64,000 nt of DNA from a virus (IMGVR_UViG_3300028591_000136:37108-101107), one strand, 5' to 3'; shown: positions 7,313-39,317, counted from the first letter of the stretch. Made by a program: numbers and translations. Notes: generated by a model not told the origin, from the sequence alone.

Positions 7313-7410
7313 TACTGGCGGTGGGAGTTGCACCCACTTTTGACTGTATACTATCAATCGCTCTTCAAGGTTTTACGTATACCTATTATCCTGTCTTGAG
7401 TTACGCCAAT
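7313..7410 (-). ncRNA. tRNA-like element with expanded D-loop and 8-nt anticodon loop
   Basis: Acceptor ATTGGCG/CGCCAGT, T-arm GTGGG-TGCAACT-CCCAC, anticodon stem GATTG/CAGTC with loop ATAGTATA, and a D-loop of about 34 nt. Abuts the CCA end of the suppressor tRNA. Confidence 0.6.
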
Positions 7411-7485
7411 TGGTCCCGGCGACCGGTTCGCTCCAGTTATTTTGGGGTTAGAGCCCAATGTGTTAGCATCATACACCACACCGAA
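7411..7485 (-). tRNA. Amber suppressor tRNA (anticodon CUA)
   Basis: Reverse complement folds as TTCGGTG / GTGT..ACAC / TTGGG-CTCTAAC-CCCAA / ACTGG-AGCGAA-CCGGT / CGCCGGG-A-CCA. Anticodon CTA at 7451-7449. Non-canonical 6-nt T-loop. Confidence 0.85.
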
Positions 7486-7489
7486 GGGG

Positions 7490-7726
7490 TGGCTCTTTTA
7501 ACGACTGAGCCAGAAGATGTCTAAATACTCATATTAGATGAGCCCTACTGCAGTCGCGATCTGCTGTACTCTTTGTATGTAGGGCTAGGCCTCAGCTCGC
7601 AAGCTGAGCACGTAGGTTAACTCCTACGTTAGTTATACGGCCTGGGTGCTGTTCTCGTATGTCCAGCCAACCTCCGCGACAACCCGAAAAACATGTCGCT
7701 ACATACTCTGCGGGAAGCATCCCAGG
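7490..7726 (-). ncRNA. Structured intergenic RNA upstream of the suppressor tRNA
   Basis: GC-rich tract with stems CCTGGGATGCT/AGCACCCAGG, GCGACA/TGTCGC, ACGTAGG/CCTACGT, CTCAGC/GCTGAG, AGCCCTAC/GTAGGGCT and TGGCTC/GAGCCA. Confidence 0.5.
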
Positions 7727-7738
7727 AACTGTTATTTC

Positions 7739-8089
7739 TTACTTTCTACGAATCCAATTCCAGAAGCGCTTGAAGATATTAGGCTTCTTGATTTTATAGT
7801 TACCCTTAGAATCAAAGATGAGTTTCTCATCACCCTTAACTTCAATCTTTGCACCAGGTACATTCATGAATGTATCTACTGCTGCAGCAGCAATCAGATC
7901 GATACTCTCATAAACTGCATTATCTTTAGCAAGCTCAAGTTCCTCTGTAGTAATTGGTTTGCCTGCACGAACCTTAGCGCTTACAACTTCGTTGTAAAGT
8001 TGTGCTGGAGTAGTGTTATCTACACAGTTCATAATGAACTCAGGTTGTACAGTCTTCTTTGTAGTTTTCTTTGTATCTGTCTTTTTCAT
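7739..8089 (-). CDS. Hypothetical protein
   Basis: 116-aa ORF in an operon; basic amphipathic C-terminus. Confidence 0.8.
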   Translation of the reverse strand: MKKTDTKKTTKKTVQPEFIMNCVDNTTPAQLYNEVVSAKVRAGKPITTEELELAKDNAVYESIDLIAAAAVDTFMNVPGAKIEVKGDEKLIFDSKGNYKIKKPNIFKRFWNWIRRK

Positions 8090-8110
8090 AATTGTATATT
8101 TATATTCTGA

Positions 8111-8482
8111 TTAACACGACTTACAACAATTCTCGCAATCACAGCAACTAGGACCATCAATGTTCTGTCCCATCGCTTCAGCGTTCTTAAGTCTAGCTTC
8201 CTCCATTCGCTTCTCGTAACTTTCGAGATTCTTGATCCACTCTTCACTCTTTACAACGATCATTCGCTTATCGAACTCGTCAGTATAGAATGTAACAATA
8301 ACATCATTCTTCTCTACATCAGCCTCTTCTCTATGTTTACCAGTCTGATAGATTACGTGCATCTGTTCTGGAGCTACATAAATGCGCTGGATTGCTTCAC
8401 GTGCAGAAGGAATACTGCTAACTTCATTAGTATCAAAATCTACTGTCATATTGATACCTTCCTTAATAAACATCGTCTTCAT
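8111..8482 (-). CDS. Hypothetical protein with Cys-rich C-terminus
   Basis: 123-aa ORF; ATGA overlap with the upstream gene. Confidence 0.8.
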   Translation of the reverse strand: MKTMFIKEGINMTVDFDTNEVSSIPSAREAIQRIYVAPEQMHVIYQTGKHREEADVEKNDVIVTFYTDEFDKRMIVVKSEEWIKNLESYEKRMEEARLKNAEAMGQNIDGPSCCDCENCCKSC

Positions 8483-8691
8483 GTTGTATAACCTTTAGAT
8501 TTATTTTCTTTATATCTACGTTTCAGCTTAAACTTGAATAGTTGATTGAATAGGATGTCTTGACTTGCTTTATCGTCTTTCATCAATTCTACTGTTTGTA
8601 TGAATGGATGTTTACATACTACTTCAACTGTTTCTTTATCTATTCCAGTTCTCTTAGAAACTTCTTTTATGACTTGTTCAATATCAATCAC
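8479..8691 (-). CDS. HU/IHF-like DNA-binding protein
   Basis: IEQVIKEVSKRTGIDKETVEVV...ILFNQLFKFKLK resembles the HU/IHF helix-helix-beta pattern. Confidence 0.6.
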   Translation of the reverse strand: MIDIEQVIKEVSKRTGIDKETVEVVCKHPFIQTVELMKDDKASQDILFNQLFKFKLKRRYKENKSKGYTT

Positions 8692-9101
8692 TTCTCAATA
8701 CCAAGTATATCGTATTGTCTCAGAAGTCGACTGTCTTTAAGCAAATCAAAACGAAGTCCTGCTGCGTCTCTAAAGATTACCGTATCACCAACATTTATAT
8801 GTCTAATAATTGTATCAGCAGACTGTTCATTATAGTATAATGGACACTTGATAACTATTCCTCTACGATAATCAGAATCAACTTCTTTAACCTCTGTCTC
8901 AACATTTTCGAAGTCTTGTGCCTCGACTCCATTTGCATCTTTTGCGGGTGTACCAGTTGCGACAGGTTTACTAAACTCTTTCTTAACTTTAACCGGATCC
9001 AGGGGCTTTACAAGGAAGAAGTCAAGGAATTGGTATTTAACTCCATTGGCTACACTCTCTGCCAGCTCCGATTGGTCAATCATTTCATTTGTTTCGTTCA
9101 T
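8688..9101 (-). CDS. GroES/Cpn10-like co-chaperonin
   Basis: FLVKPLD...RRGIVIKCP...INVGDTVIF...LLRQYDILGI matches the GroES pattern. Confidence 0.65.
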   Translation of the reverse strand: MNETNEMIDQSELAESVANGVKYQFLDFFLVKPLDPVKVKKEFSKPVATGTPAKDANGVEAQDFENVETEVKEVDSDYRRGIVIKCPLYYNEQSADTIIRHINVGDTVIFRDAAGLRFDLLKDSRLLRQYDILGIEK

Positions 9102-9511
9102 TTCTTCAAGCTTTTAAGGTGCTCAAGTAATGTAATCATATTCGTCAGTACTGTCTGACGCTCTACCTTCACACATACTGGAAGGTCGGCCATATCCTGC
9201 TCGATGGTCTCCAAACCTTTCTTGTACTTAGTAAGTAAAGAATCAATCTCGTCGAATATATTAACGAAAGACTTATCACTTACTTCAGTAGCTTCCTCAA
9301 GGTAACCCTCTTCAACAAGAGCCTTTGCATATTCTACAGAGATCTTGAATTCTGAGGTGTATGAAGATTTCACATCGTTAGCAGTATCATCTGCCTTATA
9401 GAATTCCTCATTGTGTTTAGAGATATACATCTTCTCTTCATTCGAATATTCGAAGACATCTCCCAAATTCACAACAAGAAATGGTTCAACAACTCGTAAT
9501 ATTTTTGCCAT
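9098..9511 (-). CDS. Hypothetical protein (first gene of the leftward late operon)
   Basis: 137-aa ORF with ATGA overlap. Confidence 0.8.
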   Translation of the reverse strand: MAKILRVVEPFLVVNLGDVFEYSNEEKMYISKHNEEFYKADDTANDVKSSYTSEFKISVEYAKALVEEGYLEEATEVSDKSFVNIFDEIDSLLTKYKKGLETIEQDMADLPVCVKVERQTVLTNMITLLEHLKSLKK

Positions 9512-9545
9512 ATTGTTTAATTTTATTTTGCAAATTACAACGGCG

Positions 9546-9625
9546 TAACGTAATGTAACATAAAGTTGGTTGCAAATACTTATAAAATTTTTTATTTTGC
9601 AACTTTTTGGGCTATTTTAACGTTA
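9546..9625. promoter_or_regulatory. Divergent ECF-sigma-type promoter pair (TGCAAC-N17/18-CGTTA)
   Basis: Plus strand: TGCAAC 9598-9603, 17 nt, CGTTA 9621-9625. Minus strand: TGCAAC 9574-9569, 18 nt, CGTTA 9550-9546. Lies between divergent operons. Confidence 0.55.
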
Positions 9626-9692
9626 TGGGAGAGATAGTAGAGAGGGCGAACATCCCCCTAAGAACCCCCTAATATATATTATATACATTAAG

Positions 9693-10112
9693 ATGAACAA
9701 TAATAATAAGACTAAAAAGAAGAGTAGAATAGACACATATGAGACTATATACTACGTAGATTTAGTAGTAGCAAATCAATATACAACATTAGAAGAACTA
9801 AAGAAATTGTATATCTATTCAGATGGAGTAGAACTAGATGAACAAATAATGAATAATATATGTTCAACTAGTACTATAAGACGTAAATCAGATGATAAGG
9901 ATTGTATATTAGTCAAGTATAATGGCTATGTAGATATAAAATTTGTAGACAAAAAGATTGATTTACTTAACACCATAGCCCATGAAGCTGGTCATGTTTG
10001 TATAGATATATACGATCATATGAGACAGAATATCTGCTCATGTAGTCAAGAACCTTTCTGTTACTTACTAGGTTGGGTAACTCAATGTATATACAAAACG
10101 CTTAAAAAATGA
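9693..10112 (+). CDS. Zincin-like (HExxH) putative metalloprotease
   Basis: TIAHEAGH...QEPFCYLLGW. Confidence 0.7.
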   Translation: MNNNNKTKKKSRIDTYETIYYVDLVVANQYTTLEELKKLYIYSDGVELDEQIMNNICSTSTIRRKSDDKDCILVKYNGYVDIKFVDKKIDLLNTIAHEAGHVCIDIYDHMRQNICSCSQEPFCYLLGWVTQCIYKTLKK

Positions 10113-10648
10113 CGAATATTGAGCTAAATGCCATATTGTTTTACGCAGATTACATGTCTTTAAGAGAAACTTGTCAGCCTGTAACTGACAATTGTAAGTA
10201 TTTCTACATACACGGATGCCCTATAAATGCCGCATATATCCTAGATTTAGAACCTGAATACGACGAAACAAACCCTTATTTCATCCAAGCATACGCTGAA
10301 TACAGTGCAATCAGAGATAAATATGGTGATGAAGGTATTGAGAGTTTTATTGATGATATATGTGCTATCAGGGCTTGTGGAAGTGTTGATGCTAAGTAGA
10401 TGTTGACTCGTATACATCAGTTTAGTGATAAAAAATCCCGTAAGTTAGCATTTAGCAAGTATTACGAATGGAAAGAAAACTAGTTTTATTCTCATGTTAC
10501 AATCAATGAAGATGGATACCCCCAAGAAACACCGTGTACACGCTATGTGTCACACACTGAGAGAATGCTTAACAGACGAGGAATATTTAAAAGCACATAG
10601 AAGAATGGAAGAAATACAGAAAAGACACCTTAGAATGTTGAAAAATGA
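10109..10648 (+). CDS. Hypothetical protein, TAG-recoded (179 aa)
   Basis: ORF 10109-10399 continues through TAGs at 10397, 10481, 10598 and 10631 to TGA at 10646-10648. Confidence 0.6.
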
Positions 10649-10688
10649 AGATATTGAACCACTAGAATGGGACGATATAGACTTCTAA
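10494..10688 (+). CDS. Small hypothetical protein overlapping the previous gene in another frame
   Basis: Protein-like helical sequence ending WDDIDF; probable start at 10512. Confidence 0.4.
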   Translation: MLQSMKMDTPKKHRVHAMCHTLRECLTDEEYLKAHRRMEEIQKRHLRMLKNEDIEPLEWDDIDF

Positions 10689-10710
10689 ACAGTATTTAAC
10701 CCCCTAAATT

Positions 10711-11175
10711 ATGGCAAAAATAGACCCAAATGCTAATCTATATGATATTGATGGTAATTTAATATCTAAAGCACCTTTAAAGAATAAAACCATCAGTGAA
10801 GTAGAGCAATTAGTTGATGATTTAACTAAAAAAGTTGAAGAAAATCCTGATAATGAAGTATACAAAGTATACTTAAATAACGCTCAGTCCTTCCTATTTG
10901 CTATGTATAATAACATGAGTAAGGAAGATTTAATCTCACGTATCTCAGCCCTACAAAGCAGTGTAGAAGCAGCTAAAACTGAGGTAAATGAAGCAGAACA
11001 AAAGCAGTTAGAAGAAACAAATAAGGCATTAGATGAACTTAAAAAGACGATTGAAAGCCAAAATGGAAGCTCAAAAGAGCCAGGAACAGAAGCAAGCTCA
11101 GAACCTGAACAAGGATCCAAAACAGTGACACCTGAGGAAATGGATCAGTATGTAGAGTATGAAGAAATACTATAA
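10711..11175 (+). CDS. Hypothetical coiled-coil acidic protein
   Basis: 154-aa ORF. Confidence 0.8.
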   Translation: MAKIDPNANLYDIDGNLISKAPLKNKTISEVEQLVDDLTKKVEENPDNEVYKVYLNNAQSFLFAMYNNMSKEDLISRISALQSSVEAAKTEVNEAEQKQLEETNKALDELKKTIESQNGSSKEPGTEASSEPEQGSKTVTPEEMDQYVEYEEIL

Positions 11176-11281
11176 ATAGAAAATTAAACAGCTAGAATAC
11201 GAAAGATATCTATTATATCAAGAATTATTTACAAGATAGATAGAATCATTATGTATTGAAAGTTATCTTAAATGTCGTTAA
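11159..11281 (+). CDS. Small TAG-recoded ORF (40 aa)
   Basis: MKKYYK(Q)KIKQLEYERYLLYQELFTR(Q)IESLCIESYLKCR-TAA, ending just before the terminator. Confidence 0.4.
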
Positions 11282-11296
11282 AAATAATAAAGAATA

Positions 11297-11330
11297 TAGC
11301 CCTGGGAGAAATCCTGGGGCTAATTTTTTT
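11297..11330 (+). terminator. Rho-independent terminator
   Basis: TAGCCCTGGG-AGAAAT-CCTGGGGCTA followed by a T run. Confidence 0.8.
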
Positions 11331-11681
11331 GCAAAATTTTTTATTTTATGAATACGGAAAGGAGAAATTTTATAATTTTTTATTTTATTATAGGTGCAAA
11401 AACACGAAACAGTAATGAACTGACTCCCCATCATCGATTGAAATGGAAACCACCCCCCAGCACAATCTAAGTCTCTTCTAGTATTCAGGCAAGAACAGTA
11501 CTTGCCTTAGGCCATCGCAGCGGTAGCTAACGGAAACGTTAGTCTTAGAAGAGTCCGTCTGACATCCGGGGAGAGAAACGCAACGTGTACCATACACTGA
11601 CGCCTCTCTAGGATCGGCCATGTACATTGCGCTGAGCACAATCTAAGTCTCTCGTAGATAACAACCAAATACACATATATT

Positions 11682-11873: not shown

Positions 11874-11940
11874 GGCTGTTGGGTATACGCTTGGCTCAAA
11901 CTAAATATCTCATAGATGACAGTAACAAATACAAGATATT

Positions 11941-13646: not shown

Positions 13647-13650
13647 TGAT

Positions 13651-18645: not shown

Positions 18646-18718
18646 GCGTTGTTAGCTCAGTTGATAGAGCACCGGCTCAATAAGCCGGAGGTCGTTGGTT
18701 TGAGTCCAACACGACGCA
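18646..18718 (+). tRNA. tRNA with atypical anticodon loop (TCAATAA; nominal AAT/Ile, C at position 33)
   Basis: Full cloverleaf GCGTTGT/ACGACGC, GCTC/GAGC, CCGGC/GCCGG and GTTGG-TTTGAGT-CCAAC. Confidence 0.7.
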
Positions 18719-18757: not shown

Positions 18758-19117
18758 ATGGCAAAGAAACTTGTTTTTGCAAGCAACGACGAGTGCAAAA
18801 AAGCATCTTCAATTCTAAAACAAAACAACATTGAACATGTTCTCGTCACCTACAAACACGAAAAGAACGAAAAAGTTTTTATCGTTGTACGAAATGTGAT
18901 TCTGAAAGATGTAAATCAGATAAATCTTCGGATTTCACGAGTAAAATCTATGCGACACTTTGAGAACACGGCTAATAAGCATAATTACTTTGAGCCACAG
19001 TTTGTATGCAAATGTAGAAACTGTGGCAAAGAGTTTAAACATCGCATAAAAGAGGCTGTGTGGTGCTCAAAAGAATGTCATAAAGCGTTTAGAAACGCAA
19101 AACGACAAGTTAAATAA
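18758..19117 (+). CDS. Hypothetical protein with C-terminal zinc finger
   Basis: CRNCGKEF...WCSKEC. Confidence 0.8.
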   Translation: MAKKLVFASNDECKKASSILKQNNIEHVLVTYKHEKNEKVFIVVRNVILKDVNQINLRISRVKSMRHFENTANKHNYFEPQFVCKCRNCGKEFKHRIKEAVWCSKECHKAFRNAKRQVK

Positions 19118-20551: not shown

Positions 20552-21208
20552 ATGACAGACAAAACAAAAAAGGAGACAAAACCTGTAGTATTAACACAAG
20601 ACAACGTCATCGAACAGGCTAAAGCTGGTAACATCATGACCACTGACATGGTCAACAAGATGAACGAAGAGTTAAAAGATGAGCAGAACAAACAAGTAAT
20701 TGCTGAAACCAAGCGTCGTTACACCAAGATTGCATATGTTCGCAGCATGTCTTTGGTGCACAAGCGTAAGTCATCAGACTATGATAACATGAGCACGTAC
20801 AATATACGTCAGCTCGGTCGTCTGGAGAGATTCTTGTGTGGTTTTGTAGTAACCGACATCATCGTCGACGAGTTTGCTCGTACGAAGGATGATATCCTTG
20901 AGCTGGAGGTGCTTGATGAGAAGAAGAAGACTCTTACCATCAAGATTCCTAACGCTGATGGCAAGCGTGAGGCTAAAGAATTCAAAGTCGGTGATAGCGT
21001 TCCTCCTGTGATCAGCTATATCGAGTTCGACGAAGCCGTCGAGAAGCTCGAGAAGAAGCTGCGTGAGAAACGCACGGAAATCGAGAATAAGCACACCGAA
21101 GAGGTTAAGACCATCAAGCAGGCAGCTGGTGAATACTACTGCAGCGACTGGTCATACAACCTTAAGATTGTGACTATGGACGGTTTCCAGAGTGCTCGTG
21201 GTTGGTAA
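20552..21208 (+). CDS. Hypothetical protein (codon bias suggests high expression)
   Basis: 218-aa ORF. Confidence 0.85.
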   Translation: MTDKTKKETKPVVLTQDNVIEQAKAGNIMTTDMVNKMNEELKDEQNKQVIAETKRRYTKIAYVRSMSLVHKRKSSDYDNMSTYNIRQLGRLERFLCGFVVTDIIVDEFARTKDDILELEVLDEKKKTLTIKIPNADGKREAKEFKVGDSVPPVISYIEFDEAVEKLEKKLREKRTEIENKHTEEVKTIKQAAGEYYCSDWSYNLKIVTMDGFQSARGW

Positions 21209-21565: not shown

Positions 21566-21732
21566 TAGACCACCATATCACCTAATTTTAAGGTTTCAAG
21601 AAAAGCCTTTCTAAGCGTTTTTAAAGCTTGAGTGGATTAGCTACCCACGAGAGTAGAGAAAATGTCTCAGAGAGCCTAGAAATGGCCTTAAATCGAATGT
21701 TTTGACTGATCATCTTAACATTCACAACAAGA

Positions 21733-22010
21733 ATCTTAGCGTGTCCCAGGATACGTCGTTCGGACGGGGGTTCGATTCCCCCCAGGTCCACCTGTACGGT
21801 TCTTTTACGTAGCGACCGATGGGTACAGCCGGTGAATTTTCTACCTAAAAAGAAAAGCTACAATCCGGGCTTGAATGGTTTAGACGGCGACAGAAAGTAA
21901 GACATTAAGCGCTTTGATATAAAAATTAACTGGCAATATTAAAATTGCAGACTACACGGGTCTCAAGGAGGCAGCGTGAAGTCGGTGTACAGGCTACCTA
22001 AGTGCCTGTG
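21733..22010 (+). ncRNA. ssrA: Circularly permuted (two-piece) tmRNA; tag (A)GNIKIADYTGLKEAA*
   Basis: The 3' end GGAC-GGGGG-TTCGATT-CCCCC-CAGGTCC-ACC (21762-21792) precedes the 5' end GGGCTTGAATGGTTTAGACGGCGAC (21867). G3:U70 acceptor pair. TAACT resume motif, then tag frame 21932-21979 ending AA-stop. Outer ends are approximate. Confidence 0.85.
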
Positions 22011-22016
22011 AAACGA

Positions 22017-22091
22017 GAATGAGTTGAGTGAGAGGATAACTGTCCTGCAGCTTTGCCGGATCACGTGGGTTCGAATCCCACACTCATTCCA
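22017..22091 (+). ncRNA. tRNA-like element with non-canonical D and anticodon arms
   Basis: 8-bp acceptor GAATGAGT/ACTCATTC and T-arm GTGGG-TTCGAAT-CCCAC; no standard 7-nt anticodon loop. Confidence 0.55.
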
Positions 22092-22190
22092 AGCGCGAGA
22101 GCGTGATTTGGTATCCTTTGGCATAATACAACAAATTGTTTTTTTAGTTATTTAAGGAATGATTTCTAGCCCTACGGTGGTAGGGCATCT

Positions 22191-22264
22191 GGACTTGTAG
22201 CTCAGCTGGTTAGAGCACATGACTCATAATCATGGGGTCCCAGGTTCAAACCCTGGCTGGTCCA
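22191..22264 (+). tRNA. tRNA(CAT), Ile2- or elongator Met-type
   Basis: Anticodon arm CATGA-CTCATAA-TCATG with canonical D and T arms. Confidence 0.9.
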
Positions 22265-22363
22265 CGAGTTTTATTACCTATTCTCATTAAAACAACGGGT
22301 AACTCTACATTTCGAGGGCAAAATGCGCGTGGCCACATTCAAGCGAAATAATGTGGCATGCTT

Positions 22364-22437
22364 GGTTCCTTAGCTCAGCTGGATAGAGCATGACACTTCT
22401 AATGTCAGGGTCAAAGGTTCGAATCCTTTAGGAATCA
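22364..22437 (+). tRNA. tRNA-Arg(TCT)
   Basis: TGACA-CTTCTAA-TGTCA; canonical cloverleaf. Confidence 0.92.
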
Positions 22438-22439
22438 CT

Positions 22440-22973
22440 ATGAAAAAATTAGGATATCGAGAAATGTTACGGGACAGATGTCCCAAAGTTGTTAGTCATG
22501 CTCTCAAATGGCAAAAAGCCAAAGAGAAATGGATTGACCATGTGTATTCTTATTTTGTTAAAATACTTGGCGATGAAGTCGACATTGATGATAAGATTGT
22601 AAAAACAGCAAAAGATAACAAACGAACTGTTATTAGCTTCTTATTAGGAATGAAGAAAGGAAAAATCAAGAATTTTAACTTTAAGAATACAATTGATTGG
22701 GACAACTTATCAGATGAAGAGACTAAATATTGGGAAACGGTCTCAACATGGGTAAGATGGTTCAGTACTAAGTATGGGTATATAGAAAACCTATACGATA
22801 TCTCTAAAAAGGTAGGTAAAGATGAAGAGACTATTAAAATCGAAATCATCAATAGCTATCTTGGTGCACTAATGCCGTCTCGCGACGCACCTGAGGAGGA
22901 AAAACAAGCTAAATATAATTATGTAGATAGATTTGTTGAATTCTTAATTAGGTGTTTTGAAGGAAAAATATGA
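22440..22973 (+). CDS. Hypothetical protein
   Basis: 177-aa ORF starting 2 nt after tRNA-Arg. Confidence 0.8.
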   Translation: MKKLGYREMLRDRCPKVVSHALKWQKAKEKWIDHVYSYFVKILGDEVDIDDKIVKTAKDNKRTVISFLLGMKKGKIKNFNFKNTIDWDNLSDEETKYWETVSTWVRWFSTKYGYIENLYDISKKVGKDEETIKIEIINSYLGALMPSRDAPEEEKQAKYNYVDRFVEFLIRCFEGKI

Positions 22974-23395: not shown

Positions 23396-23598
23396 GGCTG
23401 ACAACTTAATCTGGATTAGTATTCCAGCAGCCCGCAATACTTGACGAGGGTGGGTGGAATAAATCTCTCACACAGTACTGAGAGGCAGTAGGCACCACTA
23501 TGGTAGGTAGTACGAAAGTGGAGTGTAGTCAAGTAAACTTATACAGCACCGTCTGTTACGCGAGTGACACGCTAATAACCGGTAAAATTGTTTTGATT

Positions 23599-24156
23599 AT
23601 GAACCCACGTATTACCCCAGAGGAGGTTGGGATAATCAAAAGAGCGCAAGCAGGTGATGAACTTGCTTTTAATGCACTTTATCATAGGTACAAAGGATTC
23701 GTGGAAAATCTCCTTTTTCATTATCTTAAAGATATGGATGAGGCCAAGGAAATTGCAAATGTAGTTTTCTTAAAAGTGCATGAGAAACTCTCTAAGTTCA
23801 CAGCTTATGACTCCTTTGGAGGATGGCTGAGAATTTTAACAAATCGAACTGCTATCGATTATCTTCGTAGTATAAAGAACAAGCAAACAGCTTCTGACGT
23901 GAAAGAAGAACGACTTACTTCTGACATTCAGGGTTCTACAGAAAATGATCTAGTCAATCATTTGACCTATAAAGCTTTGTTGCGTGAATTCTTAACGTTT
24001 CCAGAGGTCACTCGTAAGATCTTTGAACGTTTCTACATTGATAATATGACAGTAGAAGAGATTAGTGAGTCGTTCAATCCTAAAATCCCAACTGGAACTA
24101 TTAAGTCAACGTTGTCTAGGACTAGACGAAAATTGAAAAAACGTTTAAAACTCTAA
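23599..24156 (+). CDS. ECF-type sigma-70 factor
   Basis: AQAGDELAFNALYHRY; region 2 EAKEIANVVFLKV...FGGWLRILTNRTAIDYLR; region 4 MTVEEIS...TGTIKSTLSRTRRKL. Start at 23599 preferred over 23500. Confidence 0.92.
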   Translation: MNPRITPEEVGIIKRAQAGDELAFNALYHRYKGFVENLLFHYLKDMDEAKEIANVVFLKVHEKLSKFTAYDSFGGWLRILTNRTAIDYLRSIKNKQTASDVKEERLTSDIQGSTENDLVNHLTYKALLREFLTFPEVTRKIFERFYIDNMTVEEISESFNPKIPTGTIKSTLSRTRRKLKKRLKL

Positions 24157-24654: not shown

Positions 24655-26079
24655 ATGGGAAATAACAAAAAATCTGCAGCTCAGAAGGCAGCAGAACAGC
24701 AGGCAGCTGCACAGCAGGCTCCTGCAGAAGGAAAGGTAGAAATGCCTACCACAAATGTAAACCCTCAAACAAAGGGTCTTACACAGGGCGAGAAGGTTGC
24801 TTATCTAGGTGCTCTCCAGACGGAGCGTGCTTATATGATGAACAACATAGAGAAGCCCTCTAAGGTGTTTATCGATGGTCTCACTATGCTTGCTCATGCA
24901 ACTATCATCGATATTGGTATTGGTGAGATAGCTACTGGCTGTAGCGCAGTTGGTTATATCTCAACCATCAACGAGCAGAATTACGGTTTCTTCCGTGATA
25001 TGGCTGCTGAGATGGGTGTGAAATTGCCAGAGTTCAAAGCTCTACCTGCTCCCACAGAGGAACAGTTGCAGAAAGCCGGTATCGCTGGTATTTTGCCCAA
25101 TGCTAAGATGATTACCATTGGCAAGAATAACGTTGAAAAGAGCGTTATTGACAAGAAGAAGGAAGAAATTCGTGCTACCGAAAAGGCCGTCGAGAACCCA
25201 GCCGACGTAAAGAGCGATGAGCAGCTGAAAGCCTCTCTTACAGCTATGCTTATCAAGCCAGTAGGTAACGACGAAGCAAACAAGAACAGACCTGATCCTC
25301 GTGTTCAGCGTACTATCAACTTCTATAATGGTTATCTGACTATTCAGGCTAACAACGCCGAGAATAAGGAGGAAGCCTTGAAGAAGGTGAAGGAGAAGAG
25401 CCGCATTCAGCTGCTCACTGAGATTTCGGAGATTGTAGGTCCATGTCCGTTCGCTCTGAGCGGTATTGCCAAGTTTCTTCGAAACCGTGCCTTTGAGACC
25501 GGTTCTCCTATCTCATCTTACTGCTTCTATCGTCGTTGTGCCATTGAAAAGGGTAAGGATGCCGATGATCAGTACGTGGCTGACCTGGTTCGCACCATTC
25601 TAGTATGGTCTTGTAAGAGTAATATCGCAGAGTTTAATAAGCTTCTCGAGACTCAGGAAAAGAACGTAAAGAATGAGAAGGGTGCTGCTAAGACAGCTAC
25701 TGAGTCCGCTATTCGTTACAATAAGACTCAGATTGAGGAGATGAAGCGCATCATCGATGAGGTTTCTGAACCTAACTTCGATTGTGTTGATTCTCTGATT
25801 GAGGATTATAACAGCGATGAAAAGAGCGAGAAGTACAGATTGTCTCATCGTGTTGTAGATGATATTATGAAGACATATTATCCTGAGGTGGATCGCACCA
25901 AGGTTGATGAAATGTCTATGCTCGCAGCTGTTCAGCAGCGTGCTGGTATCATCATCAATATGTTCCGCAGTCCTCTCAACCAGAATCAGGCATATTGTGA
26001 GGCTAATCTCAGCAATATTGTCGAGAAGAAGGTTGAAGAGAAACCTGCAGAAAGTGCTGAGGGTGAGTCAAAAAACTGA
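24655..26079 (+). CDS. Large hypothetical protein (474 aa, high-expression codon bias)
   Basis: Long TAG-free ORF. Confidence 0.85.
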   Translation: MGNNKKSAAQKAAEQQAAAQQAPAEGKVEMPTTNVNPQTKGLTQGEKVAYLGALQTERAYMMNNIEKPSKVFIDGLTMLAHATIIDIGIGEIATGCSAVGYISTINEQNYGFFRDMAAEMGVKLPEFKALPAPTEEQLQKAGIAGILPNAKMITIGKNNVEKSVIDKKKEEIRATEKAVENPADVKSDEQLKASLTAMLIKPVGNDEANKNRPDPRVQRTINFYNGYLTIQANNAENKEEALKKVKEKSRIQLLTEISEIVGPCPFALSGIAKFLRNRAFETGSPISSYCFYRRCAIEKGKDADDQYVADLVRTILVWSCKSNIAEFNKLLETQEKNVKNEKGAAKTATESAIRYNKTQIEEMKRIIDEVSEPNFDCVDSLIEDYNSDEKSEKYRLSHRVVDDIMKTYYPEVDRTKVDEMSMLAAVQQRAGIIINMFRSPLNQNQAYCEANLSNIVEKKVEEKPAESAEGESKN

Positions 26080-26157: not shown

Positions 26158-26604
26158 ATGAAATACGTAATGACAATTTTGTGTTCCTTTGCATTTGCCA
26201 TCGCTGGTATATGCTTAGCAATACAGAATAATAGTAGCAGTCCTGGTTATAATCAGAATGCTATTCACGCATCTACGCTTCCCAAATATGGGACGCCAAA
26301 GTTGCCACTTGATCTCCAATTGGATTTGGAGAAGAAGTACTCTAAGACAGACACTGTGTATTTGCCTTCTGACACGGTGTTTGTAACGAAACAACAGAAG
26401 GCCAAACCTAAAGTCCGTAGAGCGCATACACTCAAATCGGCTTCGATGAGTCGTCAGAGTTTACGCAGTCCAGCGTATAATCCTGACTCCATTGTGAAAA
26501 ACAAAGTATGTGGGGATCGTGAGGAGCATACCCCAGACACTATTGGACTTCCTAAAAGTTCCATTATCCTCGTTGTCGACGGCGAGGAAGTCTACAAACG
26601 TTAA
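26158..26604 (+). CDS. Membrane-anchored or secreted hypothetical protein
   Basis: N-terminal hydrophobic helix; DTVY...DTVF repeats. Confidence 0.75.
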   Translation: MKYVMTILCSFAFAIAGICLAIQNNSSSPGYNQNAIHASTLPKYGTPKLPLDLQLDLEKKYSKTDTVYLPSDTVFVTKQQKAKPKVRRAHTLKSASMSRQSLRSPAYNPDSIVKNKVCGDREEHTPDTIGLPKSSIILVVDGEEVYKR

Positions 26605-28770
26605 TAGCTCCGCAGGGGGACAGTATGAGGATTTGTACTGTCCCACCCCGTTGGGGACCTGGTCAGCATTCGTCTAAGGAATTGGTCCCATTAGCCATAG
26701 AATGCGAAATAGTACAACTTGATCCGAGAATATGTCAGCCTTCTCAAAAGGTGAGAAACCCAAAAGGTAGGATGAAATGCTGCATTGTATACGTACTATA
26801 TACCGAAAAGTTTGCAGTAAGAGGACAGAGCGTTTGTATCAAGTCCTTTGGCCATTGAGAACCGTCTGGAGAATGGGTGACCATAAAAACGCGTAAGTCG
26901 CAAAAAGCGCAAAATGATGCCGTATTCGACATGCTATTCGATGATACATAAGAATAGTATAACGTTACAGGAGCCGCAACATTGAGTTTGAAGCCAATCC
27001 CTCAATGATGTATCAATAAGCTGTAGTCTAGTGTTCCACGTCTCCACAACGTGTATGAAGGGATGAAAAATATCTGAGCATATGTGCCTAGCAGAAGGTT
27101 TGACTGTCTGCGCTGTACCGTAACTATGGTCCTTTTAAGAGTCCTTGCAGTTCGATTCTGCACAACTCCGTTGAAGGGGTGCCAGGGATGGGGTATAAAG
27201 GAAAATGTGATGAAGATGACCGCCAGGCTTTAGTCGTTCAAGCGGGATATAAAAGTAAATGACTACAAGTGGATGCAACACTTAATTCGTAAGGTTCTGG
27301 AGCCTACGATACGCGGATGAAGCGCGCGGAGAAACGCTATTTCAATTGAGGATGAGCACTGGTAAGCGAGTGTTATGTTCGAAGTAGGAAATGCTTTTGG
27401 GTGACTCCCTGACAGTCAAAATTCTTATCCCAGTGGTCGATTCGAAGCCTGTACATTCCAGTATAGAGAGAGATCGCTACTGTCAAAAACATTAAATAAT
27501 TAGATGATTACCTTATGTTGCTAAATCACCATTCCCTACAGAGTATTAAGCTGGTATATTAGGTGTGAATAACATATCGTATGGAGTAGATTCTAAGTAA
27601 AAAGATGTGAGTAGAGAACAATCCTTTTATAGTGTTTTTGCACTTTATAATTAACATGTTTAACAAAAATTGATGTCCCCTGGCTGGGAGAAAATAAAGT
27701 GTAAGCCGAAGACCCCGTTTGTAATGTTTGTGGGTGCTTTCACGCCAGAAATCGAGTGCCAACCGTTCCTGAGAAGCAAATTGACAAGATGAATCCTGTT
27801 TGAGTATGGACTGCAAATCCATATGATCGGCAGAGACCATGAAGTCGTATACATTTAATCGATGGGCAGCTTATCGTGAAATTAGTAGCCACCTCCTTGT
27901 CTCGGAGGGGTAAAGAGAATGAGTAATTAGTCTGTCGAAAGACAGTTCGCTGATGAAAAGGATTCGGTGAATATGAATCTTTAAGTGGGTGACAAGAAGC
28001 GATGTATGAGGTGGAATTCCTCCAGTATTCGTGCACTATAAACAAATGAGGATGAGCAAACATCCAACAGAAGTAATTAAAGCCGTAGGGTCTGAGAAGA
28101 GTTTTGGAGCTCTGAGATCGTCCGATAACGAAACGTACTCCTCACGTACACCACACGCAAGGTGTATAAAAGCAGGAAAAGGTAAACAGTTAGTATACGC
28201 CTTAAAGTATGCAACATCAGAGAAAATCTGTGGTTAAGTAACAATCACGGTAGTTATTCGTTTTTGTTTCTGGGAATTACACTAACGAAGAAATACCAAC
28301 TTTTGTGGGCGCTGATATGTACTATGAGCATTAGTTGGCTTTGCCAAAATTTTGTCAACGTACATTGAGGCATTGTAATATTGGATTTAGTACGTAAGGA
28401 AAGTATTCAATAAATGTTTTACGAAAAATAAACATCAATAAGATATGACTCAAGTAAACTTAGTGTTTGATTACACAAATTCAGCATTCAAAGCTTTGGG
28501 TTCTATTAATGATGATGGGCCTGGATAATCCTACCGTTGGATTCCCGTTATACGAGTTGAGCTTCATGTAAAGGAATATAGAAGTATAACTAGTCATTGA
28601 TAAAAGCGTTGCTTCCCATTAGCACAGCAACTGAGAAATAAGTTGAACAAGCGCATCCTTGAGAGCCTTGAGCCGGATGTAAAATATTTTCAAGGTTAAC
28701 CTACACCGTAGAAGTAGGAAGTAAATAATCTTATCGTTGGTGGATCAACCACGATATCAAAAAGGATAAG
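26605..28770 (+). ncRNA. ~2.1 kb hairpin-dense non-coding tract (candidate large ornate RNA or RNAs)
   Basis: No convincing protein ORF and more than 20 visible stems, several with GAAA or T-loop-like loops. Confidence 0.5.
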
Positions 28771-32597: not shown

Positions 32598-32722
32598 GAG
32601 TGAGTTGGCGAAATAGGTAGACGCGGCTCTGCAACTATCAGCGTAACGTTGACGGAAGTCATTAAATGATAGTATTGTGGGGCTGTCGAAAGACATATGG
32701 GTTCGAGTCCCATACTCACTCC
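32598..32722 (+). ncRNA. tRNA-Leu-like element whose anticodon arm is replaced by a long branched stem
   Basis: Acceptor GAGTGAGT/ACTCACTC, Leu-type D arm GGCGAAATAGGTAGACGC, variable arm TGTC-GAAA-GACA, T-arm ATGGG-TTCGAGT-CCCAT. Confidence 0.65.
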
Positions 32723-34774: not shown

Positions 34775-34803
34775 TAACCAACTTAGAACCGAGAGTCAAT
34801 AGT

Positions 34804-35370: not shown

Positions 35371-36274
35371 TATTCGACCTATGTCAGTTGTAGCTCAAGA
35401 AGCTATCAACTATATAGCAGGACGTAGAGAACATTCTATTGCGTCATTGAAGACTAGATGGGTTAAGTTTAATAAGCAGTGTATGGGAGGTATTGAACCA
35501 AATACCGTTTACACCATAGCTGGTATATCTGGAACAGGTAAATCAAGTTGGGTTAACAGCTTGACAACCGATTTAATTGATTTGAATCCAACTGAAGAGA
35601 TAGTTATTCTAAATTTCTCATTAGAGATGGTTGGATTTAGGCAAGTTGGAAGAACGCTTTCGAATAAACTTCGTAAAACGACTTCTACCTTGTATAGTTC
35701 GGAGACGGACCTTGATGACGAAACATTTAAAAAAGTCATTGCAGTATCTAATCAACTGAAAGAGTATCCTATCTATTTTGTAGATAATCCAGGTACTCCT
35801 TCAGAGGTAGAAAAAACTATTCGATCTTTCTACGAAACCTATGTGAAAGGCACTAAAAAGCATTTCATTATAGTGTACGATCATACATTGCTGACGAAAC
35901 AAGTTGGTTCAGTTATTGAAACAACATCAGAGCTTGAGCGAGTATTTATACAAGCTAAGAAGTTCCCTTTAACGTCTGTGGTGCAGATTGCACAAATGAA
36001 TAGAAATATCGAGTCTTCAGAGAGGATAAATAACCCATCGAGTCATTACCCGATGCGCAGTGATTTATCGTCATCTGATGCAATGTTTCAAGCGAGCGAT
36101 TATGTGCTCGTGATGCATAGACCAGAAATATTGAACATTCAAGAGTACGGTCCAAACCGTTTACCTACACAAAATAAGGTCTACATGCACATGTTGAAAA
36201 ACAGAGATGCAGGTAAACCTTGTATATTGGAATTCGAGAACGATTTGATGTACAACAATCTGATCGAGAGTTAA
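35351..36274 (+). CDS. DnaB-like replicative helicase
   Basis: AGISGTGKS, FSLEM, YDH, QMNR, SDLSSS..FQASD and KNRDAG. Confidence 0.9.
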   Translation: MEQNLSNIRPMSVVAQEAINYIAGRREHSIASLKTRWVKFNKQCMGGIEPNTVYTIAGISGTGKSSWVNSLTTDLIDLNPTEEIVILNFSLEMVGFRQVGRTLSNKLRKTTSTLYSSETDLDDETFKKVIAVSNQLKEYPIYFVDNPGTPSEVEKTIRSFYETYVKGTKKHFIIVYDHTLLTKQVGSVIETTSELERVFIQAKKFPLTSVVQIAQMNRNIESSERINNPSSHYPMRSDLSSSDAMFQASDYVLVMHRPEILNIQEYGPNRLPTQNKVYMHMLKNRDAGKPCILEFENDLMYNNLIES

Positions 36275-36315
36275 TGCTCAGATGACAAGTATTAACTTAA
36301 AAATTAGGCTGAATT

Positions 36316-36786
36316 ATGATTACGACATACACTTTTGGTAAGAAGAACAATAATAATAATTTTAACTTTTTTCACACTAGTAGCAAACCCGATTATTCTA
36401 AGATCCTTGATGATATTATCATTACTGATATAATCGATAAGAATGATTTCTTGACTAAGGATTATAGTACTAAGAAGGCTGACGCTGATTACTTCATGAG
36501 TAAGACTTCTAGTCCCGCTCTGATTAACGCTACTAAGTTCCTCGCCAATTATAAGACGTATTCAAAGAAGTATACTCTGCCGTATATTATCGGTAAGTGC
36601 TATACTCTTTCCGATGGTACTCCTATTGTGTTCTACGAGAACAATATTCAGATTGGTTATGATTTCTTCGATTATGATGATTTCAACGACCTGTCTTTCT
36701 TTGATTCTCTGACGAAGAAGAACAAGAAGATTATCATCGATATTTACTTGAAGGGTGCTAAGAATATTAATATTAACATCCTTTAA
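36316..36786 (+). CDS. Hypothetical protein
   Basis: 156-aa ORF. Confidence 0.8.
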   Translation: MITTYTFGKKNNNNNFNFFHTSSKPDYSKILDDIIITDIIDKNDFLTKDYSTKKADADYFMSKTSSPALINATKFLANYKTYSKKYTLPYIIGKCYTLSDGTPIVFYENNIQIGYDFFDYDDFNDLSFFDSLTKKNKKIIIDIYLKGAKNININIL

Positions 36787-36811
36787 TTAATCATTAGAAC
36801 TATAAGTCAAT

Positions 36812-37555
36812 ATGATAACTTTACCTACTCAAAAAGTTCCTGCAACTTCAACGAATCCGCAGTACTTGGTCTTATACGGTCTACCTAAAGCTGGTAAGAC
36901 TAGTGCTGTAGCACAGTTGGAGAATAATCTCATCATAGACCTTGAAGGCGGATCTAAGTTCATTGATGCGCTAGCTGTTCAGGCACGTACCATCAATGAT
37001 CTTGGAGAGATTGCACAAGCCATTCGAGCTAAGAACGATGAGTTGGGACATAATTTTTATAAACACATTACAATAGACAATGCTACACGTCTTGAAGACA
37101 TTTGTATGTCTTATGCTTGCACTCTTTATAGACAAACGGAGCTTGGTAAGAATTGGAAAGGAACAGACGTTACTACGCTCGCCAGAGGTGCAGGTTATAA
37201 GTACCTACGAGACGCCGTTAAAAAGGTGATAGATATGTTTAAAGACTTGTGCGATGAATTTATTTTGATAGGACATGTCAAAGATAGTATCACCGATAAA
37301 GACGGGGAAGAGGTCAATGCAAAAGAAATCGACCTCGTCGGAAAACTTGGGAAAATTGTGTGTGGTATGGCCGACGCTGTCGGGTACGTCTATCGCAAAG
37401 ATAATGAAACTCACATCAGTTTCAAATCTGGAGGAGACGGAACGATTATGGAAGCAAGAGCTAGGCATATCGCGGGTCAAGATATTGTTATAGCTACTGG
37501 AAACGAAGACGGTAGTATAACAACATATTGGAATCGTGTTTATAAACCTGAATAA
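36812..37555 (+). CDS. AAA_24/Sak4-like ATPase
   Basis: YGLPKAGKT, IDLEGG, ITIDNAT and LIGH. Confidence 0.85.
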   Translation: MITLPTQKVPATSTNPQYLVLYGLPKAGKTSAVAQLENNLIIDLEGGSKFIDALAVQARTINDLGEIAQAIRAKNDELGHNFYKHITIDNATRLEDICMSYACTLYRQTELGKNWKGTDVTTLARGAGYKYLRDAVKKVIDMFKDLCDEFILIGHVKDSITDKDGEEVNAKEIDLVGKLGKIVCGMADAVGYVYRKDNETHISFKSGGDGTIMEARARHIAGQDIVIATGNEDGSITTYWNRVYKPE

Positions 37556-37581
37556 GAACCTAGAGTCAATATCAGAAAATT

Positions 37582-38175
37582 ATGTATAGTACAAAAACAG
37601 CAACAACAAATAACGAGGAATTTAGTTCCTCATATATGCCTGTAGGCATCAACGAAAATGTTACTTTGAAAGAAGTAAATGTAAACAAAACTCCTCAAGG
37701 TCGTGATTTCTTAGAGATTATCTTTGAGAATGAGGACGGCCAGACAGCAACTATGACTGAGTGGAAGAACGAAAAGAATATGTGGATTACTACAGACGAA
37801 GATTTACAGCGTCGTGATAATCAGCAGTTTGGTCGTATTCTGCAGGTTATTGATGCAGTTAAAGGTGGTCATAACGATTTTGAAGGCTCTTCATTTATCG
37901 AGATGATTAACTGGGTGAAGAGTTGTCTTAATGATGGAGATAATGACCAAGTACGTCTTAAGGTTGTTTACGACAAGAAGGGCTTTACGAAAGTTAGCTC
38001 TCTTGGTACTTTTGTTGAACCTATGAGTGTAACAGAGTCTCAGATTAAGCTTTGGAAGAACGATCTTCTGGAGCGTCCAGTAGTAGCGGATAAAGAACCC
38101 GCTGCTGATCCGCTCAGTGTAACAGCTGCTCCGGTGACTGCAGACTCTACAGGTGCTGACGACCTGCCGTTTTAA
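37582..38175 (+). CDS. Putative single-stranded DNA-binding protein
   Basis: Follows the Sak4-like ATPase; beta-rich with acidic GADDLPF tail. Confidence 0.7.
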   Translation: MYSTKTATTNNEEFSSSYMPVGINENVTLKEVNVNKTPQGRDFLEIIFENEDGQTATMTEWKNEKNMWITTDEDLQRRDNQQFGRILQVIDAVKGGHNDFEGSSFIEMINWVKSCLNDGDNDQVRLKVVYDKKGFTKVSSLGTFVEPMSVTESQIKLWKNDLLERPVVADKEPAADPLSVTAAPVTADSTGADDLPF

Positions 38176-38301
38176 TCATCTTGTTTGGTGGAGGGATAAA
38201 CCATACCATCCAAGTATATTAAGACAGATAATAATGGTCAGTGGTGGAGGACTGATAGGTTAATCCTGTCAGCCCCTAACAAGATTTTTATTCTTCATAT
38301 T

Positions 38302-38714
38302 TGCTATGGCGAGAAATCCCATAGTAGAATCTCCCTAAAACGGTGAAAATCCTTATACGAGATAATTTTGGTGTAATAGGAAACACGTCACTTATAGTGA
38401 AGACCAAGGTTCGAGTCTGCGACTTTATCTCGACACTAACCAATAATGTGTAAGGATAATACCGTGCTAAATTGAATTATAATCTAGCAAATTACGTTTT
38501 AATACTAGTATACGTGTAAAGATTTGCATAATTCATAAATGTGTAGAGAGTATATAGGAGATACCTAAGTTGAAATTTATTAAAAGACTGGTCATGACCA
38601 ACCGTTATTACCTTAAAGTGTGGGGTATGAGGAATACTAAGCTGTTAAGAGAGGTGTTGTGCGGCAGGGTGCATTTAATATCTTGCAAGAATTTCAATAT
38701 GGTAAAAATACTCT
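38302..38714 (+). mobile_element. Group I intron catalytic core, intergenic; exons not identified
   Basis: P3 ATCTCC/GGAGAT, P4 ACGGT/ACCGT, P5 ATCCTTA/TAAGGAT, J6/7-P7 GTGTAGAGAGTA pairing with TACTC (38709), and P8 TACC/GGTA. Confidence 0.65.
38358..38432 (+). ncRNA. Degenerate tRNA-like domain inside P5 of the intron core
   Basis: CGAGATAA/TTATCTCG, D-arm GTGT-AATAGGAA-ACAC, TCACT-TAT-AGTGA and GGTTCGAGT. Confidence 0.45.
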
Positions 38715-38717
38715 TTG

Positions 38718-38798
38718 GAAATCAGTAGTCTAGAGGTTATGACGATCAACTACAAGATAATTGATGGACTGTGGGGTTCGATTCCCCATCTGATTACA
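38718..38798 (+). ncRNA. tRNA-like element with 11-nt anticodon loop
   Basis: AATCAG/CTGATT, GTC..GAC, ATCAA-CTACAAGATAA-TTGAT and GTGGGG-TTCGATT-CCCCAT. Confidence 0.65.
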
Positions 38799-38819
38799 AT
38801 AATTTTAATTTTTTAAAAC

Positions 38820-38930
38820 ATGAGCAAAGAATTTAAACTTAATTTTGAATGGAATACACGCGATAATAAAAATGATGCACGTGTAGGAGCAATGTACTGT
38901 TTTAAGTACTGCGACATTTGTAAAAACTAA
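38820..38930 (+). CDS. Small hypothetical protein (36 aa)
   Basis: ATG with A/T-rich leader. Confidence 0.4.
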   Translation: MSKEFKLNFEWNTRDNKNDARVGAMYCFKYCDICKN

Positions 38931-38931
38931 A

Positions 38932-39084
38932 ATGGAAGAAAAGAAGTTCAAACATGGAACAAAAGAGTACTGGATGGACTGGTACTGGAACAGAGGTGGA
39001 CGAGAAAAAGTCCAAGCTAAACGTTATATACGAGAGTATGAACGTGAAAAGAAAAAACGGAGGGCACGTACCTCAGTTGAATAG
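38932..39084 (+). CDS. Small basic protein (50 aa)
   Basis: MEEKKFKHGTKEYWMDWYWNRGG...; its TAG stop lies inside the next tRNA-like element. Confidence 0.5.
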   Translation: MEEKKFKHGTKEYWMDWYWNRGGREKVQAKRYIREYEREKKKRRARTSVE

Positions 39085-39139
39085 AGGTCTGGCGCGAAAG
39101 TTAGCCGGAAAGTCGTGGGTTTGAGTCCCACCGTGTCCA
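39062..39139 (+). ncRNA. tRNA-like element with Ala-type acceptor (G3:U70, A73) and 10-nt anticodon loop
   Basis: GGGCACG/CGTGTCC-A, CCTC/GAGG, CTGGC-GCGAAAGTTA-GCCGG and GTGGG-TTTGAGT-CCCAC. Confidence 0.7.
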
Positions 39140-39257
39140 CAAGAGGTCAAATCATATCGCTCCTCTTAGAAATAAACACGGCGGTATGTGGGTTGGAAGT
39201 TTTATTCAAACTGTGTAAAAGACAAAGAATATACAAAAGAGTTTAAGATGACCTAAA

Positions 39258-39317
39258 GTGTGATCCTGGAGGCTGCGTATGAAAAATTACGTAATAGGGT
39301 TCGAATCCCTACACACA
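39258..39317 (+). ncRNA. Minimal tRNA-like element with reduced D arm, upstream of primase
   Basis: GTGTG/CACAC, TGCGTA/TACGTA and TAGGG-TTCGAAT-CCCTA. Confidence 0.45.

Follow-up and report, generated by a model that had tools for sequence, protein, structure and literature searches.

tRNA-like folds without a decoding loop at RNA and gene boundaries of a crAss-like phage: possible processing marks

In plant mitochondria, tRNA-like folds called t-elements occur at mRNA ends and are taken as signals for RNase P and RNase Z (PMC1920247). Here, we compare them with a set of transfer RNA (tRNA)-shaped elements of a crAss-like phage from the ruminant gut. The elements lie in a window of 64,000 nt (the whole stretch analysed; bases 37108-101107 of the 101,107-bp virus record IMGVR_UViG_3300028591_000136), for which an earlier prediction, made from the sequence alone, had listed eight of them with intact acceptor and T arms and abnormal anticodon arms. 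Like t-elements, the phage elements are non-decoding folds in sense orientation, or real tRNAs, at boundaries inside polycistronic transcripts. They differ in their phage setting with bacterial enzymes and in also flanking a transfer-messenger RNA (tmRNA), a suppressor tRNA and an intron-bearing RNA. Besides, some phage families keep acceptor marks (a G3.U70 pair, an 8-bp stem) that processing does not need, and cleavage in the phage is presumed.

Two further systems come close. In organelles, tRNA punctuation yields near-leaderless mRNAs, which a phage tRNA-Arg located 2-4 nt from an ATG resembles. Theta ribozymes, minimal ribozymes of the hepatitis delta virus (HDV) type, define tRNA 3' ends in TAG-reassigning Bacteroidota phages and are also found away from tRNAs, in sense orientation and in non-coding regions (PMC10879173). 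They share with the present elements that both are cis RNA devices of recoded gut phages, yet theta ribozymes are self-cleaving, whereas the elements here would be tRNA-shaped substrates for protein or RNA enzymes. With Rfam, no HDV-like, group I or other ribozyme match was obtained in positions 1-45000 or 38150-39350. The literature we searched contained no link between crAss-like phages and tRNA-like processing elements, and in a 2026 preprint that describes an amber-recoded genome of Crassvirales, tRNA-like loci with low scores are entered as pseudogenes.

Six of the eight predicted elements are real tRNA-derived folds on the sense strand, namely 7313-7410 on the minus strand and 22017, 32598, 38719, 39062 and 39252 on the plus strand (those at 38719 and 39252 had been placed at 38718 and 39258). 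The seventh, 18646, is a genuine tRNA-Ile variant with C33, and the eighth, 38358, is unsupported. The original prediction had treated the eight as a single family; with 18646 and 38358 set aside, the other six instead represent five or more unrelated lineages. The conserved portion consists of the top half formed by acceptor and T arm, the discriminator and a C(A/T)A trailer; in the D/anticodon part the elements differ, from as little as 15 nt up to a branched arm of 60 nt. Most of the odd loops turned out to be extended stems capped by tetra- or pentaloops. Across the tRNA-like families of this phage group, members of 48-125 nt have unrelated middles, often capped by GAAA, GGAA or UUCG.

As relatives we compared 80 primase-homolog loci, 80 DNA polymerase loci, two dUTPase loci, the complete genomes G001-G004 and a few pattern matches (loci L001-L207); locus searches with the proteins 24655-26079 and 20552-21208 yielded no relatives. 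The covariation check across related genomes that had been proposed for these elements bore out the claim that their stems are under selection and that most of them are not decaying pseudogenes: compensatory changes occur in 38719 (in every helix), in the T stem of 22017/32598 and in 7313, 39062 and 39252. A strict acceptor/T scan (5-bp T stem, T-loop motif and 7-bp acceptor) returned nine distinct ends in the window compared with a mean of 0.83 in 30 shuffles, and every element lies on the same strand as its flanking genes. The minimum free energy fold is cloverleaf-like in seven of the eight; only 18646, despite its strong Rfam score, folds otherwise by itself. A coaxial acceptor, a 5-bp T stem and a TTCRANY-type T-loop characterise 18646, 22017, 32598, 38719, 39062 and 39252; the T-loop of 7313 reads TGCAACT, and the T stem of 38358 is weak. 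By contrast with these top halves, a 5-bp anticodon stem with a 7-nt loop, U33 and purine 37 was found in none of the eight, a 7-nt loop being present in 18646 alone, with C33, while 7313 and 39252 have 8-nt middle loops. Against the RF00005 gathering threshold of 29 bits, 18646 scores 63.4, 39062 39.7, 38719 a borderline 29.4 and 38358 19.9; 7313, 32598 and 39252 have no Rfam tRNA match, and 22017 matches tRNA-Sec only (21.1 bits). When introns were allowed, ARAGORN proposed intron-bearing tRNAs at 7312-7485 (minus strand), 32599-32722, 38720-38797 and 39062-39140; we rejected these calls, whose 4-78-nt 'introns' absorb extended stems or two adjacent elements.

The element at 38719-38797 has canonical D and T arms, and its supposed 11-nt anticodon loop is in fact an 8-bp helix closed by a pentaloop. 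In 13 distinct sequences of this family, 98.3% of the cells of its 23 pairs are paired, which none of 500 shuffles equalled, and pairing falls to 26-52% when the partner strand is slid. Seven pairs, spread over all four helices, have changed on both sides. G.U pairs occur on the sense strand only, which places the structure at the RNA level and in sense orientation. A CUA in the loop region had raised the candidate of a hidden amber suppressor; it was rejected, the region being the covarying 8-bp helix with its pentaloop.

The second well-populated family comprises 22017-22090 and 32598-32722. The former, confirmed here and found to have an 8-bp acceptor (GAATGAGT/ACTCATTC, discriminator C, trailer CAA), lies directly 3' of the coding piece of a permuted two-piece tmRNA (21731-21979, plus strand; tag GNIKIADYTGLKEAA; Rfam RF04321 at 65.5 bits, and ARAGORN). 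This tmRNA is kept in the window genome and in G001-G004, with tags of the form GN(I/Y)(K/N)IADYTGL(K/Q)EAA, a covarying G3.U70 acceptor and an inter-piece spacer of ~15 to >100 nt across the five genomes. The slot behind it is filled in 11 of the 11 relatives examined, by homologs of 22017 whose middle parts of 15-45 nt are unrelated to one another. The element at 32598-32722 (acceptor GAGTGAGT/ACTCACTC plus C; fold z = -3.8) combines a D arm and a variable arm of tRNA-Leu type, the latter capped by GAAA, with a branched 16-bp helix in place of the anticodon arm, as had been predicted, with GGAA and GAAA caps, and is followed after 27 nt by the DNA polymerase ATG (32750); a 74-nt version with the same acceptor is present in G001/L084. 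In total, the family has 13 distinct members of 48-125 nt, 11 of which directly follow the tmRNA tag frame and hairpin, while the other two (32598 of the window and the 74-nt version of G001) precede the DNA polymerase gene. Pairing in the family is 100%; the acceptor, GA(G/A)TGAGN/NCTCA(C/T)TC plus C, is nearly invariant, the T stem shows double changes at three of five pairs, with four pair types at one position, and the middles run from a 15-nt linker through a hairpin with UUCG or another short loop to a near-cloverleaf.

On the minus strand, the predicted 7313 element proved real, with its 8-nt loop (AUAGUAUA) and large D insert (31 nt), once read on that strand (7313-7410). Its fold is a cloverleaf, with acceptor ATTGGCG/CGCCAGT and T arm GTGGG-TGCAACT-CCCAC. 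It begins 3 nt after a suppressor tRNA and ends 23 nt before the dUTPase ATG (7289). In the homolog L162 (776-875), an acceptor U.G has become U-A and the T stem GTGGG/CCCAC has become GCGGG/CCCGC with compensation; pattern scans of viral contigs added no further homologs. The neighbouring suppressor tRNA (7414-7485, minus strand; anticodon CUA) is itself non-canonical: it has a 6-nt T-loop (AGCGAA), a D loop without GG and three G.U acceptor pairs, scores 32.3 bits with the Rfam tRNA model and is not called by ARAGORN. Its ortholog in L161/G001 is a canonical tRNA-CUA, as also carried by G002 and G004, while L162 retains the odd form, with compensatory changes in the anticodon stem. This odd form bears on reports of recoded Crassvirales 'without' a suppressor tRNA.

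Two elements lie upstream of the primase gene. The one at 39062-39139 (Rfam tRNA 39.7 bits, fold z = -3.1, trailer CAA) is tRNA-Ala-like, as had been noted, with a G3.U70 pair, but its supposed 10-nt loop closes as a GAAA tetraloop on the anticodon helix. The versions in L012/L014 are 88% identical; in L010, the middle arm is 5 nt shorter, G3.U70 is retained and pair 7:66 shows a compensatory change. A kinship of 39062 with 18646, suggested earlier, is plausible without being strong (70% identity, 55 of 79 columns; score 74, compared with 43-59 for the three other tRNAs of the window). Like the tRNA-like domain of tmRNA and synthetic tRNA-Ala minihelices, 39062 unites G3.U70 with a canonical T arm and lacks an anticodon. 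Unlike the tmRNA domain, it has a normal D arm and neither a tag frame nor a partner piece, and the Rfam tmRNA model, which aligns both its ends, gives it 23.5 bits against a threshold of 47. The reduced element at 39252-39319, confirmed with a 5-bp acceptor, a T arm and a 5-6-bp middle hairpin, belongs to a family of four distinct sequences in which pair 49:65 is A-U, U-A, U.G or C-G and an acceptor pair has changed from G-C to A-U. The primase of the window had been called as ORF (open reading frame) 39279. Since matches in relatives start at its residue 22, and an in-frame ATG at 39342 encodes MYSTKTA, the true start is probably 39342, which would put the element in the leader, outside the gene and ~22 nt upstream of the start. 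Of note, MYSTKTA also forms the first seven residues of the upstream ORF 37582-38175, so the start regions of the two genes appear to be duplicated.

What unites these lineages is position. One site follows the permuted tmRNA on its 3' side, another does so for the amber suppressor tRNA, and others precede the starts of dUTPase, DNA polymerase and primase by 14-27 nt. Among 75 distinct primase loci, 54 have a T-arm hairpin before the primase ATG, and in 49 of these the implied 3' end lies 14-27 nt upstream; the background elsewhere is 0.034 per 190 nt. The strict rule also catches a second kind of hairpin (e.g. in L034), so that part of the 54 is not tRNA-like. This hairpin (CTGATAGG-TTAAT-CCTGTCAG; 38231-38285, plus strand) has 8 bp, is conserved in >20 related loci and is flanked by GGAGGA and CCCC. 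Its position varies among loci, usually with a tRNA, a tRNA-like element or the leader of the primase right behind it, and L020 shows a compensatory change. Canonical tRNAs called by ARAGORN account for only nine of the primase-locus T-arm hairpins, with six different anticodons. At the DNA polymerase gene, unrelated tRNA-likes of different relatives end right before a conserved leader, CTAGTATTAACTAAAGAACCTnnGAGTCATG (CTAGTATTAAC...); a motif scan for this replication-gene leader was too permissive to use. In L083 and L090, an HNH-type ORF (CCxxCNxMK) upstream of DNA polymerase occupies the slot that holds a tRNA-like element in others.

Ordinary tRNAs take the same kind of position. The canonical tRNA-Arg(UCU) of the window (22364-22437, plus strand) abuts ORF 22440, and in four of five genomes only 2-4 nt separate its discriminator from the ATG of this conserved ORF (MKKLGYREMLRDRCPK), so that 3' processing of the tRNA would yield a near-leaderless message of ORF 22440. 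In relatives, canonical tRNAs for Leu (UAA), Trp, Lys, Val, Thr and Gln are located at or near the same slots as the tRNA-like elements. The two classes also share their trailer: among 122 distinct strict acceptor/T elements from all loci, CAA or CTA follows the discriminator in 34 of 41 canonical tRNAs and 56 of 81 non-canonical elements, compared with a background of ~2% for CAA (that of CTA was not counted). A trailer common to true tRNAs and look-alikes suggests one 3'-end pathway, in which CAA/CTA is a possible 3'-processing determinant.

On the structures, conservation, positions and common trailer thus observed we base a tentative proposal, held at somewhat less than even confidence: the six elements act in cis as RNase P/RNase Z punctuation that has lost the decoding loop and kept the features needed for end processing. 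It is favoured because the parts that make a processing substrate are under selection, the parts used in decoding or read by anticodon nucleases vary most freely, the elements sit at borders of functional RNAs and at a set, short spacing from start codons, and they exchange with real tRNAs. The minihelix formed by the acceptor and T arm is the minimal substrate of RNase P, RNase Z and the CCA-adding enzyme, and the coaxial helix, T loop, discriminator and usual phage tRNA trailer of the six may be the features these enzymes read. Transcribed within early/middle polycistronic RNAs, the elements would be cut on the 5' side by host RNase P and after the discriminator by RNase Z or an equivalent. 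As a result, the coding piece of the tmRNA would gain a free 3' end, the suppressor tRNA and the message of dUTPase would come apart, and the messages for dUTPase, DNA polymerase and primase would each begin with a defined leader only 14-27 nt long. At other slots canonical tRNAs may do the same job, as with tRNA-Arg 2-4 nt from its ORF, which would explain why relatives hold interchangeable tRNAs and tRNA-likes at one slot. Among the three roles previously suggested for the elements, that of RNase P/Z signals fits best, given a minihelix, a discriminator and a tRNA-type trailer at RNA/ORF boundaries. That of aminoacyl-tRNA synthetase ligands may still apply to the G3.U70 element and to the family with the 8-bp acceptor. 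Decoys for anticodon nucleases are a poor fit: conservation is lowest in the anticodon loop, which is often replaced by a closed stem with a GNRA- or UNCG-type loop or missing altogether, and with no anticodon loop conserved such a role is disfavoured.

Several observations weigh against punctuation. About a quarter of the primase loci have no T-arm hairpin under the strict rule. The 38719 family retains a D arm and a long middle helix, and 39062 its G3.U70, which is more than a cutting signal requires. At two slots, the 8-bp acceptor GAGTGAGN/NCTCACTC-C shows no variation although its T stem drifts; neither RNase P nor RNase Z requires a particular acceptor sequence, and this constancy suggests that some further reader recognises the sequence. 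Pfam and PHROGs revealed no CCA-adding enzyme, RNA ligase, RNase or synthetase among 32 plus-strand ORFs, so that the model rests wholly on host enzymes. Finally, the RNA runs are assembled contigs, which show no molecule ends and whose summed depth cannot rank loci.

The same retained features speak for a second explanation, which we consider unlikely as the principal one: the released RNAs would be anticodon-less mimics, either CCA-ended and charged (39062 by the alanyl-tRNA synthetase, AlaRS, via G3.U70; 22017/32598 by the histidyl-tRNA synthetase, HisRS, via a G-1:C73-like pair) or binding and titrating a factor, of the host or of a defence system, that binds tRNAs and recognises their acceptor end or elbow, with the cis position being secondary. 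Francklyn and Schimmel reportedly found in 1989/1990 that AlaRS and HisRS charge minihelices from acceptor marks alone. In line with this, G3.U70 is present in all three versions of 39062 despite a changing anticodon arm, the 8-bp acceptor plus C does not vary among 13 members from two slots whose T stems covary, and in the 38719 family the complete L-shape is preserved, including canonical D- and T-loop sequences. As judged from sequence, the acceptor GAGTGAGN/NCTCACTC followed by C in the 13 members corresponds to the tRNA-His mark (G-1:C73-like, 8-bp acceptor); the family has no GUG anticodon arm, its middles being unrelated hairpins or absent. A strict pattern for the 8-bp acceptor matched no host tRNA in 185,579 species genomes, and none of the first 80 genome matches to a loose pattern overlaps a tRNA, so the 8-bp acceptor mimics no sampled host tRNA. 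Moreover, charged or titrating RNAs would leave both the tight spacing to start codons and the exchange with ordinary tRNAs unexplained. Punctuation and released, charged or bound RNAs are compatible with each other, and the invariant acceptor and G3.U70 keep the latter alive. A bolder extension, to which we give rather little credence, would make the tRNA-shaped module an obligatory, exchangeable expression signal of early replication genes and tmRNA maturation, the type with the invariant acceptor GAGUGAGN/NCUCACUC-C being recognised by its own sequence-specific factor, either a synthetase or a protein of the phage, through which tmRNA 3'-end formation is coupled to DNA polymerase expression.

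Improbable, in our view, is that the elements are by-products of fast tRNA-gene turnover in hypervariable intergenic islands, as tRNA genes that were deleted in part or rearranged, with little or no function of their own. Such turnover would account for the canonical tRNAs that relatives have at or near the slots, for the mosaic of intron, small ORFs and HNH-like genes in the islands, for the tRNA-Leu-type D and variable arms still visible in 32598, and for 38358, which has no conserved counterpart. Pure decay is contradicted by compensatory substitutions and near-perfect pairing in every multi-member family, and turnover does not sit well with the replacement of anticodon regions by stable capped helices, with the kept trailer or with a 22017 slot that is filled in all relatives. 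Least probable are DNA-level hairpin or cruciform signals, such as virion RNA polymerase promoter-like sites or sites favoured in recombination or homing of mobile cassettes: the elements do lie right upstream of replication genes in mosaic cassettes, and in the crAss-like phage phi14:2 early transcripts of the virion polymerase, which uses single-stranded or denatured DNA, have no common upstream motif (bioRxiv 10.1101/2020.03.07.982082), but a G.U pair of the sense strand becomes an A.C mismatch when the opposite strand is read, the acceptor pairing covaries over 50-125 nt, and T-loops of tRNA type and the trailer are common to real tRNAs.

The element at 18646-18718 (plus strand) stands apart from the punctuation candidates. 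Its predicted C33 is confirmed: it is a tRNA-Ile-type gene (Rfam 63.4 bits, ARAGORN) with anticodon AAU in a 7-nt loop, UCAAUAA, that has C33 for U33. In the L197 homolog the anticodon is GAU, C33 recurs and two acceptor pairs show compensation, and because of this shared C33 with a compensated acceptor we regard 18646 as a tRNA-Ile lineage under selection rather than an anticodon-less mimic. A more distant homolog in G003 has an irregular loop, and pattern scans of viral contigs yielded one new homolog only. Phage-encoded tRNAs with anticodon-loop changes are said, in work placed in eLife in 2023, to evade tRNA-targeting defences. As decoding-type tRNA-Ile genes with a conserved altered loop (C33), 18646 and its L197 counterpart resemble these; the other elements, having no 7-nt anticodon loop, cannot replace a cleaved host tRNA. 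The ORF at 18758-19117, which starts 39 nt downstream of 18646, has a weak HNH match (PHROG E = 2.5e-4).

The remaining candidate, 38358-38432, is probably not an element of the tRNA-like kind. It folds as a cloverleaf (z = -1.6), with a weak T stem and an Rfam tRNA score of 19.9 bits (E 0.36), and has no counterpart in ~200 related loci. It sits in the first variable spacer, a peripheral region, of an RNA of four conserved blocks and variable spacers (38290-38712, plus strand, boundaries approximate) that we read as a group I-type intron. Block 3 is 87-96% identical to the distant crAss-like phages cr116_1 and IAS virus and weakly matches Lak megaphages. In cr116_1, a 587-nt insert with homologous blocks splits the primase gene at residue 186 (residues 24-186 | 186-322), and the flanks join into one primase frame, whereas the window copy sits in non-coding RNA. 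Between window and cr116_1, two helices show compensatory changes (GAGTAT/ATACTC vs GACTAT/ATAGTC; TTGAAATT/AATTTCAA vs TTTAAGTT/AACTTAAA) and, by eye, resemble P7 and P8. The interruption of the cr116_1 primase and this P7/P8-like covariation recall phage group IA-type introns, from which 38290-38712 differs in its location in non-coding RNA 5' of a tRNA-like element and in having no match to the Rfam group I model (RF00028) up to E = 10; a P1-P10 core with splice sites was not recognised in it. An intron-less junction exists in L020, in which the 38231-type hairpin is directly followed by a 38719-type element. Four rumen RNA libraries hold many contigs of high depth in which the blocks occur with different spacers; as these depths are summed over organisms, they indicate that the blocks are common to abundant sequences and do not imply high expression of 38290-38712.

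As to the genomic setting, the public records nearest to the window are the crAss-like phages cr273_1, cr272_1 and cr124_1 from pig and human feces, and it is present in DNA and RNA runs of goat, sheep and cattle gut. When TAG is read as an amino acid, three frames on the minus strand (1-4207, 43293-48299 and 48290-63145) extend over 1402, 1668 and 4951 codons, so that the late genes are TAG-recoded. ARAGORN and Rfam agree on four ordinary-looking tRNAs (Glu 18440, 'Ile-AAT' 18646, Met 22191 and Arg 22364), to which weaker matches add 39062 (39.7 bits), 38719 (29.4) and the CUA-bearing 7414-7485 (32.3). An ECF (extracytoplasmic function)-type sigma factor gene is encoded at 23500-24156 in the early/middle region (Sigma70_r2 E = 1.3e-10; r4_2 E = 2.1e-7). 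Positions 26589-28770, ~2 kb without a long ORF under any of three codes tried, could be a large non-coding RNA or an intron-rich region, and contigs of this part are much deeper than those of neighbouring genes in one sheep RNA library (X9). Gaps around 21706-22453 in the long, strain-identical X9 contigs are uninformative. Besides, a 59-nt minihelix (acceptor GCATAG/CTATGC; T arm GTAGG-TTCGATT-CCTAC) occurs 3.8 kb before the window in a minus-strand gene block (G000:C1:33270-33328, minus strand).

Crassvirales are among the most abundant gut phages, and at issue are the way their early transcripts are cut and the meaning of their 'pseudo-tRNA' predictions. The present work corrects gene calls in that the probable primase start moves to 39342, and it recognises an intron-like RNA and a non-canonical suppressor tRNA. 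If the elements are processing marks, this would explain pseudogene annotations, provide a rule for transcript boundaries in uncultured phages, and extend tRNA punctuation beyond organelles. It would also offer biochemistry a set of natural anticodon-less mimics with Ala- and His-type acceptor marks.

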